NCBI GenBank assembly: GCA_963717465.1
Contig: OY970340.1
Location: forward strand, 672,001 to 736,000
Direction of reading: 5' to 3'
Source: Candidatus Bathyarchaeota archaeon
GTDB lineage: Archaea > Thermoproteota > Bathyarchaeia > Bathyarchaeales > Bathycorpusculaceae
DNA: 64,000 nucleotides
Below the pieces are notes generated by a model. It did not search any database. It was not told the origin of the DNA and saw only the letters and a program-made list of their open reading frames with translations. The first letter of the stretch is position 1; every line of letters begins with the position of its first letter. Of the stretch, positions 10,448-24,441 are shown in pieces. The position numbers were made by a program, and so were the translations under genes.

Positions 10448-11420
10448 TTAAAAAACAAGGTCCGCCATGTCCACACTGTTTTCGTAAATCTGCTTTAAGA
10501 AAGACAGAGCTGCTAGGATTTGCGGCATTATTTCGACAGGATTAGCCTTTGCAATCTTTTCAGTGTTCGTGTATAAGGCTTCAATTTTTCCCCTCATTGA
10601 ACGCACGTTTTCAGCTAAAGCAATATCCTTATTCACGAATGATTTCAATGCCTGTTCATGCGCATCGCTGCAAACTGCCTGAAAATCAAACAGCAACTTT
10701 TGCAACTCAACTGAAGGCTTAACACCGTTAAGGGATAAAGTTTTGGCTGCAACTTGAACACAGGCATCCCCTATGGCTTCAATTATGCTTGCAGCTAAAC
10801 GATAATCTAAGCAGTCTATCGCACTAATTCCAAGTTTCTCGCCAAGCCGAGAATTTTGAATTACAGTTCGCAAAATTCTAACCAAGAGGAAATAGAGTCG
10901 GTTACTCTCATTGTCCCTAGCAATCACGCTTTTAGCCAGGTTCATGTCTGAATTGATGAAAGAAGAAGCTACGTCGCGAGCCATGCCGGCAACAATGGCA
11001 TAGTTTCTTCTTAGGATTTTTTCTGGTGCAAAACCCGAAGGTTCAAGGAGACACTGCAAAACAATTTGAGAATAGTTTTCTTCAACAATCTCTAAGACCA
11101 ATCAAAGAGCTAACAGTTTGTTTAACAAGGTCTCTAATGTCAAAATCTATGCGGTCTTTAGCTTCAATGCGAATGACGTCAAAACCAAGCAGATAACTCC
11201 CGATTACTTCACGACGCAGATAAGACCCAACATTCAAGGTAACTTCTTTTTGTTGTGGCTCCGCATTATATTTTGGGTCCACAATAAGTTTTCCGTCTTC
11301 AGTTAAGTCCAAATTAACCAAAGTTCCCTTCTTAAGACCATTTTGTGTAGCCCAAGACCTTGGCACACAAACAAAAAAAGTACCAGTTGGAGTGCGTTGA
11401 ACTTTGCGTAAATCACCCAA
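10448..11420 (-). CDS. AbrB-domain PhoU-family phosphate uptake regulator (frameshift ~11090)
   Basis: RKVQRT..GTFFVCVPRSW AbrB-type N-terminus; SYLLGFDVIRI; ARDNESNRLYFLLVR; EAIGD PhoU motif. Confidence 0.85.
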
Positions 11421-11690: not shown

Positions 11691-13266
11691 ATGCTATGAT
11701 GGAAGCAAGAAAAACTTAAAAAGGCAATCGAAGCAACCATTGCAGCAGGTTACCAATTAAACAGCGAAGCTTTTGAGTTTTTAAAAACAAACCCTGCAGC
11801 TGAAGATCCTGTTGAAGTAATGAATTTAGCGATTCAAAGAATGGAACAATTGGAGAATAAGCCTTTATTCATAGGCAAGGAACTTATCTAGAAACAATTT
11901 TACAACCATCAAGCTCCAGAGAAGAAACAATCTCTTAAAGTCAAACTCAACCAAGCCCAAGCATGGAACCTCAAAATCAGACTCACTGTAGAAAAGGAAG
12001 ACTTTTTTTACCCTTATGCTAAGTACATCCCAGCTCAAATTAACATTATTAGATGATTCAACAGGGAAGCTGAGTTCTAATGGAACGCTAGAGGAGTACC
12101 TTCGATACTTTCAAGATAGGTTTAAACGGATTGAACGTCTGCTGAGGCAAAGAATGGATGTTAAAGCTGCAACATCAATATTGGAAGCATTGAAATCTCA
12201 GCCTAAAACAAAGCTAAAAATTATTTGCATGCTAACTGAGAAACGCGAATCAAAAAATCAAATATTCTTATCAGTTGAAGATTTACATGGAAGCACCACT
12301 GTTCTAATCCCGCAAAAAGCGCCTGAAGAAGTGCATAAAAAGGCGGCTCAACTTACTGCCTGACCAGATAGTTTGCTTAGCCGTGATAAAAACAAGAACC
12401 AATCTCTTTCTAGCTGAAGACATAATTTTTCCAGAAGTAGGCAAGAAACCTCAACAGAGAGCTGATGAACCTGTTTATGCAGTATTAACTTCAGATATTC
12501 ATATTGGAAGCAACAAATTCCAAAGAGAAGCATTCAACCGCTTTATTCAATGGCTTAACGGCAAATACGGAAACCAAGAAATGAAAGAAATCGCTGGCCG
12601 CGTAAAATACCTTCTCATCGCAGGCGACATTGTTGATGGCATCGGAGTTTACCCAAACCAAGTAAAAGAACTTTTGATAAGAGATGTTCATAAGCAATAC
12701 AGGTTCGCAGCAAAACTTATGCAGCAAATTCCAGATTACATTCAAATCATAGTTTCACCGGGTAACCATGATGCATCAAGAAAATCCCTTCCGCAACCAG
12801 CTATACCACAAGAATACCTAAAAACGATAAATGAAAAAGGCAACATTTACTCCGTCGGTAGCCCCTGTGTGCTCACTATACATGGTGTTGAAGTCTTAAT
12901 GTATCATGGCCGCAGTTTAGATGACCTAATCGGCACAGTTCCAGGGATAGATCATGATCACCCTGAAAAAGCAATGAAACTGCTTCTTGCAAGCACGTCA
13001 TTTAGCACCAGTGTACGGTGGCAAAACAATGTTGTCGCCAGAAAACCGAGATTACTTAGTAATTGATAGAGTACCTGATATTTTCCATGCTGGCCACATT
13101 CACGTCTTAGGGCTACTGCAATTACCGAGGAGTTTTAGTCATAAATTCTGGCGGTTGGCAAGAGCAAACTGACTATATGCAGAAGTTAGGTTTGGTTCCA
13201 ACGCCTGGGAAAGTGCCAGTAGTTAACTTGCAAACATTAGAAACATCAGTATTATCATTTAATTAG
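11691..13266 (+). CDS. polB: DNA polymerase D small subunit DP1 (several frameshifts; start approximate)
   Basis: YFQDRFKRI, SVEDLHG, SDIHIGS, AGDIVDGIGVYP, PGNHDA, YHGRSLDD, RHLAPVYGG, PDIFHAGHIH, NSGGWQEQT...PTPGKVPVVNL. Confidence 0.92.
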
Positions 13267-13305
13267 CATCGAAAAAGGCAGCAGAAAAACATTCAGGGTC
13301 TTACT

Positions 13306-14538
13306 TTAAGTGTTCTTGGAATTAACAGTAGTTGGAGTATATTCTAGCAAATGGCTAAACCTGCTGTCACTTCCAAATACGTCTTTGATCAGAGAACGCG
13401 ATATTTCCAGCCTTATTTTTTTAGTTCGTCCATAGCGACCCATGCTCACTACTTTTGCATTCAAAAGACCCATCGAATCAAGTTCATTAATCAAAGTGCC
13501 TAATCGGCGTTGAGTTAAAAGCCCCGCGCCTTGTTCTCCGCAGAGTTCATTGTAAATATCGTATATTTCGCCAGTATTAGCGCTTGATTTGTTCAGATGA
13601 TAAACGCTTAAAAGCACCAATTTTGAGTGTAAAGTTAAGTTTTTGAGCGCTTCGACAACACGGTTATGTTCTATATGTCTTTCAGCTTGCCTTACATGTT
13701 CATCTGTAATAATTTTGTCTTTTTGTCGTTCTGCAACTTCGCCAGCCACACGCAGCAGATCCAGGGCGCGGCGTGCATCACCATGTTCAGCAGCGGCTAA
13801 AGCTGAACAGATACTTAATGCAGCTTCAGATAAAACGCCTTCTTGAAACGAAAGCTTTGATCTTTCCAAGAATATATTGCGAAGTTCACTTGCATCATAG
13901 GGTCTGAAGACCAGTTCTTCCTCGCTAAGAGAACTGAAAACTCGTGGGTCAAGAAATTCTTTCAACCGTAAATCGTTGGATATTCCAATTATAGATACCT
14001 TACTCTTGCTAAGCGTTTCGTTTATTCTTGTTAATTCATACATGAAGCCGTCTCCATGCTCTTTAATCAAAGCGTCAACTTCGTCCAAGACTATTATGAA
14101 AATTATTCTTGAAGCGTCTAATCCTGATCGGAACCTATCGAAGACTTCGCCGACAGATAATCCAGTAAAAGGAATAGTTAAGCCAACGCTTTGACTTAGG
14201 CTTGCAAAAACTCGATATTCTGAGCCTACCATCCTGCAATTAATATAGCAAAACTTTACAAAAGATCCATACTCTTTAGATTTAGATTCTAAATGACTTA
14301 AGACATACTTGGTAACTGCAGTCTTTCCAGTTCCAGTTTTCCCATAAATAAAGATGTTTGAGCAACGTGCATTTTTTAGAACAGGAGCAACAGTTTGACC
14401 TAAAAGACGGATTTGTTCTTCTCTATGAGGCAATTTTTCAGGTAGGTAATCATGCCTTAGAACTTCGCGGTCCTTAAAGAGACAAACGCCATTTACAAAG
14501 TTGTCGAATACATCATTTAAGATACTTTGATTACCCAT
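13306..14538 (-). CDS. cdc6: Orc1/Cdc6 replication initiator
   Basis: LPHREEQI, Walker A GKTGTGKT, Walker B LDEVD, GDARRALDLLR, C-terminal wHTH SMGRYGRT. Confidence 0.97.
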   Translation of the reverse strand: MGNQSILNDVFDNFVNGVCLFKDREVLRHDYLPEKLPHREEQIRLLGQTVAPVLKNARCSNIFIYGKTGTGKTAVTKYVLSHLESKSKEYGSFVKFCYINCRMVGSEYRVFASLSQSVGLTIPFTGLSVGEVFDRFRSGLDASRIIFIIVLDEVDALIKEHGDGFMYELTRINETLSKSKVSIIGISNDLRLKEFLDPRVFSSLSEEELVFRPYDASELRNIFLERSKLSFQEGVLSEAALSICSALAAAEHGDARRALDLLRVAGEVAERQKDKIITDEHVRQAERHIEHNRVVEALKNLTLHSKLVLLSVYHLNKSSANTGEIYDIYNELCGEQGAGLLTQRRLGTLINELDSMGLLNAKVVSMGRYGRTKKIRLEISRSLIKDVFGSDSRFSHLLEYTPTTVNSKNT

Positions 14539-14685
14539 TAGCCAGTCCCTTCCACTTTAGAGGGAACATCGTTATTCAAAATGGAACAGATAAAGCCTAT
14601 AGTACAAAAAACTGGTTTGAAGCACAATAATCCTAAAAATTAATGCAAGCAAGGGATGATAAGCAGGCAAACAGAGACTTACACG

Positions 14686-15169
14686 CACCCCAAGGTTTCT
14701 ACTGGAAAAATTTGTTAAAAAAAATTTAATTAAGAAAAACTTAGATATAATATATATAAATAATAATATACTCTAATAGTTAAAGAGAATATTTGTTTAT
14801 TAATTATTATTGTCAAGTATTTTAGACAAGTAGTCTGCAATTCTTTTTTCGAGAGTTTTTTAGCCGTTTTCATTGAAAAATATTTCGAGAGGAAATGTAG
14901 GGGTGTCGGCAAGTCCATGTGGTTGTCCATATAATTCCTCTTTTCCCTTTTTAAAAAAGATTTTAAACTTCAATTTTCTTGCCATGACTCTATATTGTAA
15001 AAAATATTATTCATTGTTAAATCTTAAGTCTCTTCTTTTTCCTTCACAGACTTGTGAACCAGTTGTGAAATTGATCATAAAATATCTCTTATTCAGCCTT
15101 TATTTTGTCATTGTATTCTATTTATGTCCTTTTTACTGTGAAGATGCCACCCCTGCATTTCTACTGGAG
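14686..15169. other. oriC: Replication origin oriC (three ORB boxes plus AT-rich unwinding element)
   Basis: 22-bp ORBs: 14686-14707(-) TTCCAGTAGAAACCTTGGGGTG; 14884-14905(+) TTCGAGAGGAAATGTAGGGGTG; 15148-15169(-) CTCCAGTAGAAATGCAGGGGTG; very AT-rich tract ~14710-14830; directly upstream of cdc6. Confidence 0.9.
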
Positions 15170-15345
15170 AAACAAGATCAGAATGAAGAAAAGAATTTTA
15201 AATCAATCAGAGATTGTGTGACCCTTGTAATTCTTAAAAAAATGAATTTTAAGCCTATTTTTAAAATTTAGTCATTATATCAGTCGTTTCACAAACTCCG
15301 ATTTCACCATAACAATTATAAGGTGTAAAGCTGTAAAGTTGTGAA
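15043..15345. repeat. Cluster of TTCAC/GTGAA motifs, including inverted repeat TTCACA-gact-TGTGAA
   Basis: Copies at 15043, 15054, 15065, 15138, 15288, 15303, 15341, plus TGTAAAG twice at ~15324-15338. Confidence 0.55.
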
Positions 15346-15367
15346 CGTCTCAAGGTGCACCGCAAGC

Positions 15368-15796
15368 ATGCCCGCTAGAAAAATGCGTGTGGAGTTATTC
15401 GATAACGAGGGAAATCGATACACTATAGCCTTTGAGGGACAAATCACTCGAGATAAAGCTTTGCGGCTCCTTGATCTTGTTGAATTGCTTGGTGGAGTGC
15501 CTGAGGGTCAACAGCCTTCTGGATTAGGAAATCTTCCAGGTGAGGCTTCTTCAAGATTTGAAAAAATGCGCTCAGTGATTCAGAAGAATTTTCCTCTTGT
15601 CTGGTTTTCATCCAAGGAAATTCAGTCGGTCTATGAGCAGGAACTTAAAGAACCCATAAGTTTGAGCACCGTTTCAACTTATTTAGCTAGAATGGCAGGC
15701 AAGGGCTACCTCCTTAGAACTGGCGGTGCCAACAATTTGAAGTACAAGATTTCGTCAGTGACTCCGCAAGCAGTTGTAAAACAAACAATGAAATGA
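15368..15796 (+). CDS. Origin-adjacent hypothetical protein with C-terminal winged HTH
   Basis: ATG at 15368; C-terminal FSSKEIQSVYEQELKEPISLSTVSTYLARMAGKGYLLRTG...KYKI has the helix-turn-helix-wing pattern. Confidence 0.75.
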   Translation: MPARKMRVELFDNEGNRYTIAFEGQITRDKALRLLDLVELLGGVPEGQQPSGLGNLPGEASSRFEKMRSVIQKNFPLVWFSSKEIQSVYEQELKEPISLSTVSTYLARMAGKGYLLRTGGANNLKYKISSVTPQAVVKQTMK

Positions 15797-15843
15797 TAAC
15801 TATTTTCCAAGTTGATTAATCTTTAGAAGATTATGAACTTCTG

Positions 15844-16558
15844 TTAAGCTGGTGGGTTCTCTGTTTTGTTTAAGAATTTTTCCATTTCTTTTTTAACGCT
15901 GTATCGGAATGGGATTTTGCCGGTTTCTCTTTCGAGGTATCCTCCTTCATACAGCTTCTTCATTAGTCTGGCTGTGTGCTCTCTGCTGAGTTTAACTCTG
16001 TCTTTAATTTCAGGCGCTGTTTTTGGCCCTTCAGAAGATAGCATTTCCAAGCACTGAAATTTCTGTATCAGTCAACGCAGCCATTGCTTTATCACGCCTA
16101 ATTGGTATAACTGGTTCGGGCTTGTTTTCAGTTGGGGATGCAAACTTTTGAATCTGTTCTTCGAAACCCGAAATTCTTGTCTTAAAACTTTCCTGAGAGT
16201 TTTCAATATCCTTAATTTTCAGTTCAAAACCATTTAGACTTGCCAAAACTTTTTCATTGTCCTCTATTGCCTTGGCGAATTGGTTTTCTATCGGGTTTAG
16301 CTTCTTTTCTAAAGCTTCTGCTTTTTTGAATCCTGCGTCAGCTTTGGCTGAATTTCCTTCAACTTTGTAAGCAATCAATTCTAATCTGCTTGCTTCGCGC
16401 TTGAGTTCTCTGTTAAAGCTAAGAACAATGTCCTGAACCGAGTTCTTTGCCTTCTCGTACTCTTTTTGTGCATTCTTAATTTGCCTAAGAAAGATAATAC
16501 ACGAGATAACTATGGCTGCAAGCAGTACAGTTAATAAAACTAAACTTACGTCAGTCAT
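15844..16558 (-). CDS. Membrane-anchored coiled-coil protein with C-terminal winged HTH (1-bp frameshift ~16048)
   Basis: N-terminal TM VSLVLLTVLLAAIVISCIIFL; long heptad-rich helix; removing one G joins it to LTDTEISVLEMLSSEGPKTAPEIKDRVKLSREHTARLMKKLYEGGYLERE (wHTH). Confidence 0.78.
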
Positions 16559-16573
16559 GTTTGTTCATACTCC

Positions 16574-16857
16574 GTGATTCGTGCGTGATTCAAACAGTGT
16601 TGCATCACAAATCACAGTTACCATGAAACTTTTAAGTTTTATGGTGATATCTCGCTTTATCTGTCCTCCACATCACAGGTCACAAAATAAATCACAGCTT
16701 CTATCTTTACATCTGTGATCAGTGTTAACGTTTTATATCTTAAATTTTAGCTTATTTTCAGCAATAAAGCTCTATTTGAGCTTTTAACTATGAACCTTAA
16801 ATTCATATGTGTAAAGTTTTCAAAACATAGCATCCTTATGTGATTTGTGACATCACA
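16574..16857. repeat. Array of RTCAC/GTGAY motifs with GTGATATCAC-like palindromes
   Basis: Half-sites at 16574, 16585, 16604, 16611, 16644, 16672, 16679, 16691, 16715, 16840, 16847, 16852; GTGATATCTC at 16644; TGTGACATCACA at 16846. Confidence 0.7.
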
Positions 16858-17332
16858 AAGGCTCTCCTGATGGACTAGAAAGCCGTTTTAAGCTCGTTTC
16901 AAGCTCTTCCCGGATGATTTCGACCAGTTTTAAGCGTTCTTTTAGCTCATCTTCCTTGTCTGGCACTTCCTGGTGTGCCTCCACATATTCCTTCAATTTA
17001 TTGCTTATTTCGAGATACGGGTCAAGAGTAGTCGTTTCAAACACTCCTAAGTAGCCTAAAAGCAGTACAGTGTATATGGATTTTATCACGTTTTCTTTAG
17101 ACTGTTTTAATGTCCTATTAAAGGAACCGCGACTTATTTTAGCCTTAGTTAGCCTTAAACAGGCTTTTTCATCGTACTTTAGCTGTTTGCCTGAAATATT
17201 CTCGGCTAAAATGTCTATTAACAGTGTTTCTAGCTGGATTTTTGTTAATTGGCTATTTTTAGCCAGTATTTTTACAATAGGGTCGTTTAATGCCCCGTTT
17301 AACCATGCTTGAACGCCTTCTTTTAGCTTCAA
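16853..17332 (-). CDS. Hypothetical protein with sigma70-region-4/HTH_10-like DNA-binding motif
   Basis: SQLTKIQLETLL...YDEKA.LR...KISRGSFNRTLKQSKENV followed by a C-terminal amphipathic helix. Confidence 0.65.
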   Translation of the reverse strand: MKLKEGVQAWLNGALNDPIVKILAKNSQLTKIQLETLLIDILAENISGKQLKYDEKACLRLTKAKISRGSFNRTLKQSKENVIKSIYTVLLLGYLGVFETTTLDPYLEISNKLKEYVEAHQEVPDKEDELKERLKLVEIIREELETSLKRLSSPSGEPL

Positions 17333-17702
17333 ACTGCTCTACTTCTCCGTATATTGAAATGGATACGCTTTTGTATACTATGCCTGCTTTTTAAAATTTT
17401 CCTAACAGAAAGCTAACCCTGTTTTAGTTCTAAAATGGCATTAATTGAGGCTTAAAATAAAAATTAACTACTTTTTGAGGCATTATTAGAGTTATACAGT
17501 CAATATGTTTGTGTTTGGCTTAAATATGCTTGTACTGCCCTTCTCTGACCCAATAAAATGGTTGAGATTAACTAGATGTTGGCTGAGTGTTTGCCTGAAT
17601 TATAGGTTCATTTTATCGATTGCATGTTAAGTTAATATAATTCACACAATTTACCTCTAAATTAAAAAGACTTTTCTGACGCTCCATTCTTTTTCTATGC
17701 GA

Positions 17703-17809
17703 GTGATATCATCATGAATTGTCTTCGTGATATCACCTTGTCACAAATAGTCACGTTGGATGCTCCATGGAATCTTTGATATCACAGCGTGATGTGACGC
17801 GTCTGTGAT
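17703..17809. repeat. Second array of RTCAC/GTGAY motifs with GTGATATCAC palindromes
   Basis: Nine half-sites in 107 bp; perfect GTGATATCAC at 17727-17736; one-mismatch copies at 17703 and 17776. Confidence 0.72.
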
Positions 17810-17824
17810 TTGCGAAATGATGGA

Positions 17825-18659
17825 TTAAAAAAGTTCAGCTTGCTTCATTAACTCTAAGAAAAGCTCTGGTCTGAGGTCTCTTAAGGTTGGGATGAATGTT
17901 TCAGCCCCAATTAGGTCTTTGAAGTCAACTTCACAGGTGACGAAATCCTCTTCATCATACTTTGCCTTGGCAATTACTTCTCCAGTTGGGCTTACAAGTC
18001 TGCTTCCACCCCAGAACTGCAAGCCATCCTCAACTCCGGCAAGGTTAACGTAAGCGAGAAAAGCAGTGTTTTCCAGAGCTCTTGCGCTCGTCAGGATTTC
18101 AAAGTATCCTCTGCGGACGGCAGGTGATGCTGAGATACAGACTATTAATTGGGCCCCCTTTAGTCGTGTAAGGCGAATTACCTCAGGGAAGAAAATGTCA
18201 TAGCAAATGCATAATCCTATTTTGCCTATTGCAGTGTCGAATGAGACGGTTTGGTATCCTGGGCGAAAATATCTTTTCTCTTCAAAAACGCTATGGGTTG
18301 GCAAGTAGAATTTACGGTATTTCCCTATCAAACCTTTAGGACCCACGAAAACTGCCGTGTTAAATATTGTTGCTTTGCTCTTTTCGCTAAGTTCAGGCAT
18401 TCCAAAAATGATATGCCTTCCAGTTTTTTTCGCTAACGCTGCAACCTTTTCGGTTGTCGGTCCAGGAATTGTTTCAGCTAATTCGTAGAGTTGATCCATC
18501 ACTACGTAGCCAGTCAAGGAAAGCTCAGGAAAAATCACTAAATCAGCCGCTTGCTCCTTTGCCTTAATTGTTACTTCTTCTATTTTGCGAAAATTCTGTT
18601 CCTTATCTTCGCGTCGACTGCTTATTTGGGCAAGGGCTAATTTTAATTTTATCTTTCAA
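17825..18659 (-). CDS. Carbon-nitrogen hydrolase (nitrilase family); N-terminal frameshift
   Basis: KLALAQI N-terminus upstream of the listed ORF; triad motifs FPELSLTGY (E), YRKFYLP (K), ICYDIFFPE (C). Confidence 0.9.
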
Positions 18660-24186: not shown

Positions 24187-24441
24187 TTGCATCCGAACGC
24201 TTACTTACATCAAATAAAGAATGTTGCCAAAGGTCTCAAAACTCGAACTCTCATACTTACAATTCTTGAAGCCAAATCCGTCACTGCTTCAGAAATATCA
24301 AAAGAAACATCTCTAACATACGGGGTAATTATGCACCACTTAAAACTTTTAGAAAACGAAGGAATAGCCCAACGTAAGAATAAGGGTAAGCGCCAGTTTG
24401 TTTGGTCACTTTCTGGGCTTGGACAAAAACGTCTTAGTTAA
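24187..24441 (+). CDS. Small ArsR-like winged-helix protein
   Basis: TRTLILTIL...TASEISKETSLTYGVIMHHLKLLENEGI. Confidence 0.8.
   Translation: MHPNAYLHQIKNVAKGLKTRTLILTILEAKSVTASEISKETSLTYGVIMHHLKLLENEGIAQRKNKGKRQFVWSLSGLGQKRLS

Follow-up and report, generated by a model that had tools for sequence, protein, structure and literature searches.

A conserved three-gene module with dedicated DNA motifs beside a predicted archaeal replication origin, including a candidate membrane tether

We analysed 64,000 nucleotides of a Candidatus Bathyarchaeota genome (the window, which spans 672-736 kb of a genome assembled as one 3.05-Mb contig and with relatives labelled Bathyarchaeia) that carry the replication initiator gene orc1/cdc6, a predicted origin made of origin recognition boxes (ORBs) and, beside these, three genes that we call A, B and C. 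We find that the three genes form a real, deeply conserved and uncharacterised origin-side module. Their order is conserved, three short motifs accompany them that stand out in the whole genome, motifs 1 and 2 disappear together with A and B, and one set of repeats is embedded at the codon level in the genes next door. The division of labour that we propose, which we regard as close to evenly poised between right and wrong, is that A would be an origin factor acting on TGTKAA sites, B a binder of a patch of repeats and a membrane tether, and C a binder of a single operator on its own promoter.

Gene order and conservation

All three genes lie directly beside the ORBs, where a preliminary description of this DNA had placed them (Table 1). 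Conservation was followed in 220 loci anchored on C, namely the best 80 of 172 and 140 selected for long contigs and breadth; related genomes among them are not independent observations. C is present in 55 of 61 genomes of the family, 130 of 151 of the class and 125 of 251 of the phylum, and A in 166 of the 251 phylum genomes, where each listed genome has a single match. All 103 order-level loci retained after 10 short ones were dropped have the arrangement cdc6, ORB origin, A, B, C, as do 19 of 20 loci of f31, a Nitrosopumilaceae-type group whose twentieth locus stops at a contig end (f-numbers denote unnamed groups of relatives, and G000 is the genome of the window). Outside these two sets, C is accompanied by cdc6, A and B in 13 of 45 other Bathyarchaeia loci (2 dropped) and in 8 of 32 other phylum loci (8 dropped). 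The preliminary description had tied its proposal to a position next to cdc6 and the origin, and this position is conserved in relatives.

The nearest relatives of the f31 proteins are labelled Nitrosopumilus and Nitrosarchaeum, and Nitrosopumilus-labelled records have all three genes and all three motifs. In a larger f31-type set, the motif 2 palindrome and motif 3 occur in all 61 full-length loci (19 short ones dropped), a dense motif 2 cluster in 58 of these and at least five motif 1 sites upstream of A in 56. Because Nitrosopumilus, a genus with cultured species, carries the genes and motifs, direct tests are possible there. The origin of N. maritimus presumably lies at cdc6. This species has a single mapped origin (PMC4010727). 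In the genome of the window, a strict ORB pattern has two matches, both at the cdc6-side origin; GC skew does not mark the origin in this genome. Our literature searches, with most subscription papers and all supplements outside their scope, returned no description of the module.

Conserved proximity could also arise if A, B and C were unrelated housekeeping regulators that stay side by side because the origin region rearranges slowly. In keeping with this, the three genes are lost or moved independently and share their neighbourhood with unrelated genes (DP1, DP2, GGGP synthase, Elf1, NurA-HerA and hypF). We nevertheless think such an explanation quite improbable, since in three genomes A stays closer to the ORBs than cdc6, A and B remain adjacent through loss of C and through inversions, and the repeat arrays described below are rebuilt inside whichever gene adjoins C. 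Other genes also visit the locus. In about 30 loci (e.g. L002, L087, L144) A and B are separated by a NurA-like and HerA-like pair that this window does not have, and a hypF gene, a gene joining a helix-turn-helix (HTH) to CBS domains and an endonuclease dU gene recur in or beside the module in deep-branching Bathyarchaeia (L138:7494-9821, L126:6094-6702, L117:10073-10660).

The three proteins

The preliminary description had predicted an HTH in each gene, and this stands for B, whose winged helix matches HTH_27 at 23.4 bits (Pfam cut-off 22.2) and is the sole one of the three above cut-off. The prediction is weak for A, with only a Penicillinase_R match at E 0.011, and for C, which itself has no HTH match; Pfam HTH_10 is found below cut-off in 3 of 54 C homologues (best E 0.0043). 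Where databases give names, A and C are hypothetical proteins and B is a winged-helix or MarR regulator. A search of PDB sequences returned nothing significant for A or C and, among the best 60 of 74 matches for B, generic coiled-coil proteins only. The ESM Atlas yielded hypothetical clusters only, and PHROGs no matches for A or C. A was also considered as a relative of B or of the Cdc6 winged helix, and nothing beyond one weak match was found.

B combines an N-terminal hydrophobic helix followed by basic residues, found in 179 of 193 B loci, with a coiled coil recognised from profile matches and a recognition helix, REHxxR, that is nearly invariant among homologues; weak matches to TrmB and Lrs14 were also seen. 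In the window, B is split into two open reading frames (16031-16558 and 15844-16050) by one extra base near 16049-16050 relative to four of four aligned relatives. The split is likely an assembly error, as DP1 in the same window has four frameshifts and B is unbroken in 194 of 196 relatives. Among sequencing runs, one DNA run with a small share contained relatives only, and no RNA run was listed.

Motif 2 arrays are tied to gene B

Motif 2 consists of a 10-bp palindromic core, RTGAYRTCAY, with direct extensions at 7 bp and 10-11 bp. The two densest 150-bp windows for its half-site RTCAC in the whole genome start at 16574 and 17703, with nine half-sites each (next best 5; expected 0.34). The densities on which the preliminary description had relied are therefore the highest of the genome, for RTCAC as for the TGTGAA/TTCACA sites of motif 1. 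It had spoken of dense arrays of two related motifs; the arrays do exceed chance, and the motifs number three, the third being the palindrome at 17359-17380. All of these motifs were picked after viewing the sequence, so conservation is the real test.

We found RTGAYRTCAY within about 1.2 kb of the C stop codon in 192 of 195 loci that have B and in 1 of 20 that do not (6 loci unclassified), against a background in this genome of 0.018 per 2.5 kb. A locus was called B-less when it had no B and its genome no match to the B winged helix; 8 of the 20 had coiled-coil-only matches. The single B-less locus with a palindrome belongs to a genome (G098) that is 86% complete. The other ten B-less Bathyarchaeia fall into three clades of a FastTree phylogeny covering 82 of 111 loci (the 29 dropped include f51, f54 and G098), from which we estimate about three to five independent events in which B and the palindrome were probably lost together. 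Motif 2 is thus tied to B by the pattern of gene loss.

The arrays extend into neighbouring coding sequences, and there they exceed what the proteins impose. Using the maximum over the whole gene, which superseded a first test with a window chosen post hoc, arrays in genes adjoining C beat synonymous recoding (P < 0.05) in 18 of 18 aminotransferase, 8 of 11 hypF and 8 of 12 nadE genes. Distal controls did so in 1 of 33 nadE, 1 of 14 nitrilase and 1 of 14 GGGP synthase genes. Next to C itself, GGGP synthase (0 of 14) and nitrilase (0 of 2) genes gave no positives. The 34 positive genes adjoining C represent three inherited events, and the aminotransferase has no true distal orthologue to serve as a control, only paralogues of 28-37% identity in G000 with 0-1 sites.

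Motif 2 also stays at C when B is displaced. In loci with another gene between B and C, the start of B has 0-3 motif 2 sites in 15 of 16, and the patch at the C stop codon is at least 2.8-fold over background in 13 of 16. In eight loci an inverted hypF separates the two genes and the arrays lie at least 1.3 kb from the B start, which makes a shared operon promoter unlikely. Arrays inside unrelated genes and away from the B start support a centromere-like role for motif 2.

These results bear on an account in which the module is a transcriptional circuit: A, B and C would regulate their own promoters, B, membrane-bound or soluble, would repress by looping between arrays on either side of the C and B promoters, and any contact with the membrane would be incidental. 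The placement of the motifs agrees with it, motif 2 straddling the TATA-like element of B, motif 1 flanking that of A and motif 3 lying between the TATA-like run and the start of C, as do the database names of B and its weak TrmB and Lrs14 matches. Sites within genes would not be foreign to it either, as the loop repressors of lac and gal have auxiliary operators inside genes. However, neither motif 2 nor motif 3 has other targets in the genome, the arrays lie far from the B start in the eight hypF loci, and motif 1 stays at the origin rather than at the A promoter when A moves. We therefore consider a purely transcriptional circuit unlikely, though by no means negligible.

The patch is compact and confined to the origin side. 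Paired motif 2 sites number 18 per 10 kb within 5 kb of the origin and 0.9-1.4 elsewhere, no other motif 2 target was found in the genome, and across loci the arrays form two to four clusters spaced a few hundred bases to about 1 kb apart. A broad spread like that of the ram sites of RacA was considered on the strength of 3 TCACANNTCAC copies at 5-50 kb (0.4 expected); it did not hold with paired sites, nor clearly in 10 other genomes. Families in which the B helix is altered hinted at a shift of motif 2 to ATGAY, but the pattern is not clean and we do not claim it. In one locus (L101, genome G067), B and C are 6.7 kb apart and small motif 2 clusters occur across the whole interval.

Such clusters would also suit a coiled-coil protein that bridges DNA and thereby folds or insulates the origin side, for instance by providing SMC with a loading or boundary site, with the membrane helix a lineage-specific extra. 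The coiled coil, winged helix and arrays are all kept in helix-less families such as f29, and the genome has SMC. On the other hand, 23 of 28 families, Nitrosopumilaceae-type loci included, retain the membrane helix, and several helix-less forms start, as judged by eye, with short hydrophobic-basic ends (e.g. LFGK, FGW) that may target membranes. Bridging without a membrane role seems to us improbable.

Motif 1 tracks the origin and gene A

Motif 1, with the consensus TGTKAA, occurs among the ORBs as TGTGAA in this genome and mostly as TGTTAA in f31. The densest TGTGAA/TTCACA window of the genome starts at 15043, with 6 sites in 310 bp (next best 4). One site stands 20-21 bp ahead of the ORB3 core in 88 of 93 family loci; in 43 others the offset varies. 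At origins that lack A, motif 1 does not exceed background (five of five; z -0.8 to 0.7); it is enriched at four of four origins whose gene A lies at a distance (z 3.3-7.3), and in families with a distant A it is mostly sparse upstream of A itself. These gene-loss patterns tie motif 1 to both A and the origin. A likely binds the TGTKAA sites among the ORBs.

In three genomes (G208, G270 and G272; loci L338, L339 and L325), A sits beside ORB-like boxes with cdc6 90-190 kb off, and A may be a better origin marker than cdc6 in these lineages; relatives in the family of G272 are labelled Thermofilaceae. A is also dispensable, since f11 and f25 keep Cdc6 and ORBs without it. A also goes with the origin in the clade of f18, f28 and f12, where it was not found in 12 of 13 genomes (one has a partial match). 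All seven of the clade's genomes that were checked lack an origin-type Orc1/Cdc6, retaining only a paralogue of about 30% identity, and the loci (e.g. L106, L117, L100, L139) have no ORB cluster, which makes these groups candidate archaea replicating without an ORB origin. As a whole, this distribution of A matches that expected of an origin accessory factor.

Motif 3 and gene C

Motif 3 is unique in the genome, with a profile score of 22.2 (next best 12.4), and is found with at most one mismatch in 199 of 221 loci. The ten B-less Bathyarchaeia all retain both C and motif 3. A regulon of C was sought in this genome and none was found, nor was any other motif 3 target. C is likely an autoregulator that binds one operator on its own promoter.

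Proposed mechanism

In the mechanism that we favour, A would bind among the ORBs and modulate Cdc6-dependent initiation, and would repress its own promoter. B would pair through its coiled coil, bind and bridge the separate arrays and repress its own promoter, while its predicted N-terminal membrane helix would keep DNA lying 1.5-3 kb from the origin attached to the membrane. If B is inserted in the membrane and bound to the arrays, origin-side DNA would be held there by construction; we infer that this holding is the selected function. In this way the patch would, like RicO, position or segregate the origin by passive means with no ParA motor, alongside the SMC protein encoded in this genome. 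C would repress itself through one operator.

More tentative is a joint reading in which B and its arrays would be an archaeal point centromere with a membrane tether, free of ParA and spanning Bathyarchaeia and the ammonia-oxidising Nitrososphaeria, and A a winged-helix counterpart of UBP at ORB origins across much of Thermoproteota. We regard it as possible and somewhat doubtful.

A number of observations weigh against the tether, the origin factor or both. About three clades of Bathyarchaeia, and two further families, have lost B, and A, B and C are lost or relocated separately. Fourteen of 193 B loci encode no membrane helix; at the level of families this applies to 5 of 28, among them f29, whose arrays are strong. 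The array upstream of C is missing in f31 and f34 (adjacent GGGP synthase, 0 of 14), and the patch is limited to about 1-1.5 kb on each side of the C stop codon (about 2 kb in total). Array 1 straddles the TATA-like element of B as an operator would, so self-repression is likely part of the story. Two loci that have B and no C contain half-site clusters without a perfect palindrome, and their B, judged by eye, lacks the membrane helix. B and its arrays persist in f18, f28 and f12, groups that yielded neither an origin-type Cdc6 nor ORBs nor A. The A-bearing origins of f3, f29, f52, most of f34, L325 and one L339 ORB pair show no motif 1 enrichment, and the ORB span of the window itself reaches a z of only 1.4 with a loose 5-mer. 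Finally, B has no ParA partner, and the best ParA/MinD match of the genome does not co-occur with it.

Two ideas of the preliminary description are narrowed by this evidence. It had proposed, as one possibility, a single module binding centromere-like sites: the motifs are tied to genes and a centromere-like role of motif 2 is supported, but A, B and C are not one obligate system. It had also likened the origin-proximal arrays to known segregation sites; there is an origin-side patch, but its sites are not widely spread as ram or ricS sites are, and B often lacks the membrane helix.

ParA-type ATPases and partition proteins

The absence from the window of a ParA/MinD ATPase and of recognisable SegA/SegB genes, which the preliminary description had remarked on, is borne out. 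None of the genome's ParA-family matches falls in the window (eight lie elsewhere), and neighbour clusters scanned across the loci gave no ParA-family match. Searches of Pfam, NCBIfam and PDB sequences returned no match to SegB, ParB or AspA. Nearly opposite the origin, at G000:C1:2207926-2208726 (L331:2927-3727), a MinD/ParA-like ATPase gene follows HTH-like and Sso10a-like genes, and homologues in G131 and G008 also lie roughly opposite their origins. This gene was considered as a partner of B acting in trans and rejected, as the two are not co-distributed: it is present in 8 of 10 B-less Bathyarchaeia and in 0 of 4 f31 genomes. About 90 kb from the origin, G000:C1:597138-598700 encodes tandem P-loop ATPases of the ParA/MinD superfamily, which we take from their resemblance to be CooC-like.

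Comparison with known systems

Bacterial origin anchors offer the closest parallels to B. RicO of Staphylococcus aureus has an N-terminal HTH and a C-terminal amphipathic helix, binds nine ricS sites over about 700 kb and works in a host with an incomplete partition system; the same paper describes RacA and its ram sites in B. subtilis (bioRxiv 10.64898/2026.03.06.710092). RocS of S. pneumoniae is a comparable origin anchor (PMC13042908). Like these proteins, B unites an HTH, a coiled coil and a predicted membrane anchor in a single chain and has a specific origin-proximal motif. Unlike RicO, it has the reverse domain order, with the membrane helix N-terminal and the winged helix C-terminal, and its sites crowd within about 2 kb next to the B gene. 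Should B prove to be a tether, archaea would have in it a counterpart of RicO and RacA that is not homologous to them.

For A the nearest likeness is UBP with its ucm motif in Sulfolobales and Desulfurococcales. UBP binds through beta-hairpins to a site in the unwinding element and to hundreds of other sites, and its authors describe it as a recent acquisition and ask whether other lineages have analogous proteins (PMC12141716). A is likewise a small non-initiator with a short motif of its own inside an ORB origin, motif 1 tracking A and staying at the origin. It differs in being a predicted winged helix and in its sites, which surround ORB3 rather than falling within the AT-rich stretch and form clusters at the origin alone. 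By analogy, A would fit the slot of a UBP counterpart in other lineages, a question for which the locus now names one candidate, with predicted binding sites.

The resemblance in both cases would be one of function. B may work like RicO and RacA, and A like UBP. B falls short of membership in the family of origin anchors in sequence, the RacA profile scoring it at 13.9 bits (cut-off 165; E 0.042) over the coiled coil only and RicO and RocS profiles not being searched, in domain order and in the spread of its sites. No UBP entry appears among the PDB sequence matches of A at E up to 1.

Among archaeal proteins, SegAB of Sulfolobus and AspA-ParB-ParA of pNOB8 are site-specific binders with palindromic sites beside their own genes, perhaps serving as centromere and operator, and AspA is a winged helix (PMC5120986). 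B likewise has palindromic sites beside its own gene that could be both centromere and operator, but its locus encodes no ParA. Sulfolobus oriC3, an origin without ORBs, has WhiP as its initiator (PMC4010727). A is likewise a predicted winged-helix gene beside an origin; it differs in lying at an ORB origin with three ORBs and its own Cdc6, and in being dispensable in f11 and f25. Two reviews, in the passages on segregation consulted here, name only SegAB, AspA-ParBA and ParA/ParB homologues for archaeal chromosome segregation (PMC7617429, PMC5120986). For chromosome positioning and segregation in Thaumarchaeota and Bathyarchaeia, the locus names one candidate, B.

The spacing of motif 2 recalls another system. 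The omega protein of pSM19035 is a ribbon-helix-helix plasmid protein with a ParA partner, acting on WATCACW heptads. There, direct and inverted 7-bp repeats of the ATCAC type are operator and centromere at once, and motif 2 has a 7-bp direct spacing peak; motif 2, in contrast, has a 10-bp palindromic core and is likely bound by a winged helix.

Other features of the window

Table 1. Features of the origin region and the adjacent module, in window coordinates
Feature	Position	Strand	Description	Basis or remark
orc1/cdc6	13306..14538	-	Replication initiator, origin type	TIGR02928 413 bits, Cdc6_C, Cdc6_lid
ORB1	14686..14709	+	Origin recognition box with G-string	Sequence patterns
AT-rich stretch	14710..14884		Between inverted ORBs, predicted unwinding element	Role assigned by analogy with ORB-DUE-ORB origins (DUE, unwinding element; PMC12141716)
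ORB2	14885..14905	-	Inverted origin recognition box	Sequence patterns
Motif 1 cluster	15043..15069		TTCACA-N4-TGTGAA-N5-TGTGAA, likely bound by A	Each spaced pair once in genome; tracks A and origin
Motif 1 site	15137..15142	+	Abuts ORB3 G-string	Same offset in 88/93 family loci
ORB3	15148..15172	+	Origin recognition box	Sequence patterns
Motif 1 sites	15288..15345		Sites at 15288 and 15340 flanking TATA-like TTATAA of gene A	Putative promoter
Gene A	15368..15796	+	142 aa; small N-terminal domain and predicted winged helix; likely origin-binding accessory factor	Penicillinase_R E 0.011
Gene B	15844..16558	-	About 240 aa; predicted membrane helix at the N terminus, then coiled coil and winged helix; one extra base interrupts the frame	Profile hits, alignments
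Motif 2 array 1	16574..16719		9 RTCAC half-sites, straddles TATA-like element of B
Motif 2 array 2	16840..16856		Palindrome GTGACATCAC and 7-bp direct copy, overlaps C stop codon
Gene C	16853..17332	-	159 aa, not assigned to a family; distant homologues weakly resemble HTH_10/sigma70-r4	Profile hits
Motif 3	17359..17380		Single palindrome GATAC-N6-GTATAC between TATA-like run and start of C; likely operator of C
Motif 2 array 3	17703..17809		9 half-sites, two palindromes, about 370 bp upstream of C start

An Rfam scan of 14400-18000 gave no matches, and sigma-70 promoter scans of a kind ill-suited to archaea stayed at chance level. Besides B, several genes of this assembly are frameshifted, namely DP1 (four breaks; window 11700-13270), PhoU (one; window 10448-11420), SMC (G000:C1:321264-324790) and hypF (G000:C1:2521832-2524094), a pattern suggesting that indel errors are frequent. 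At window positions 24187-24441, DP2 is followed by a fourth small gene for a winged-helix protein, ArsR-like with HTH_5 above cut-off, as it is in many Bathyarchaeia loci.

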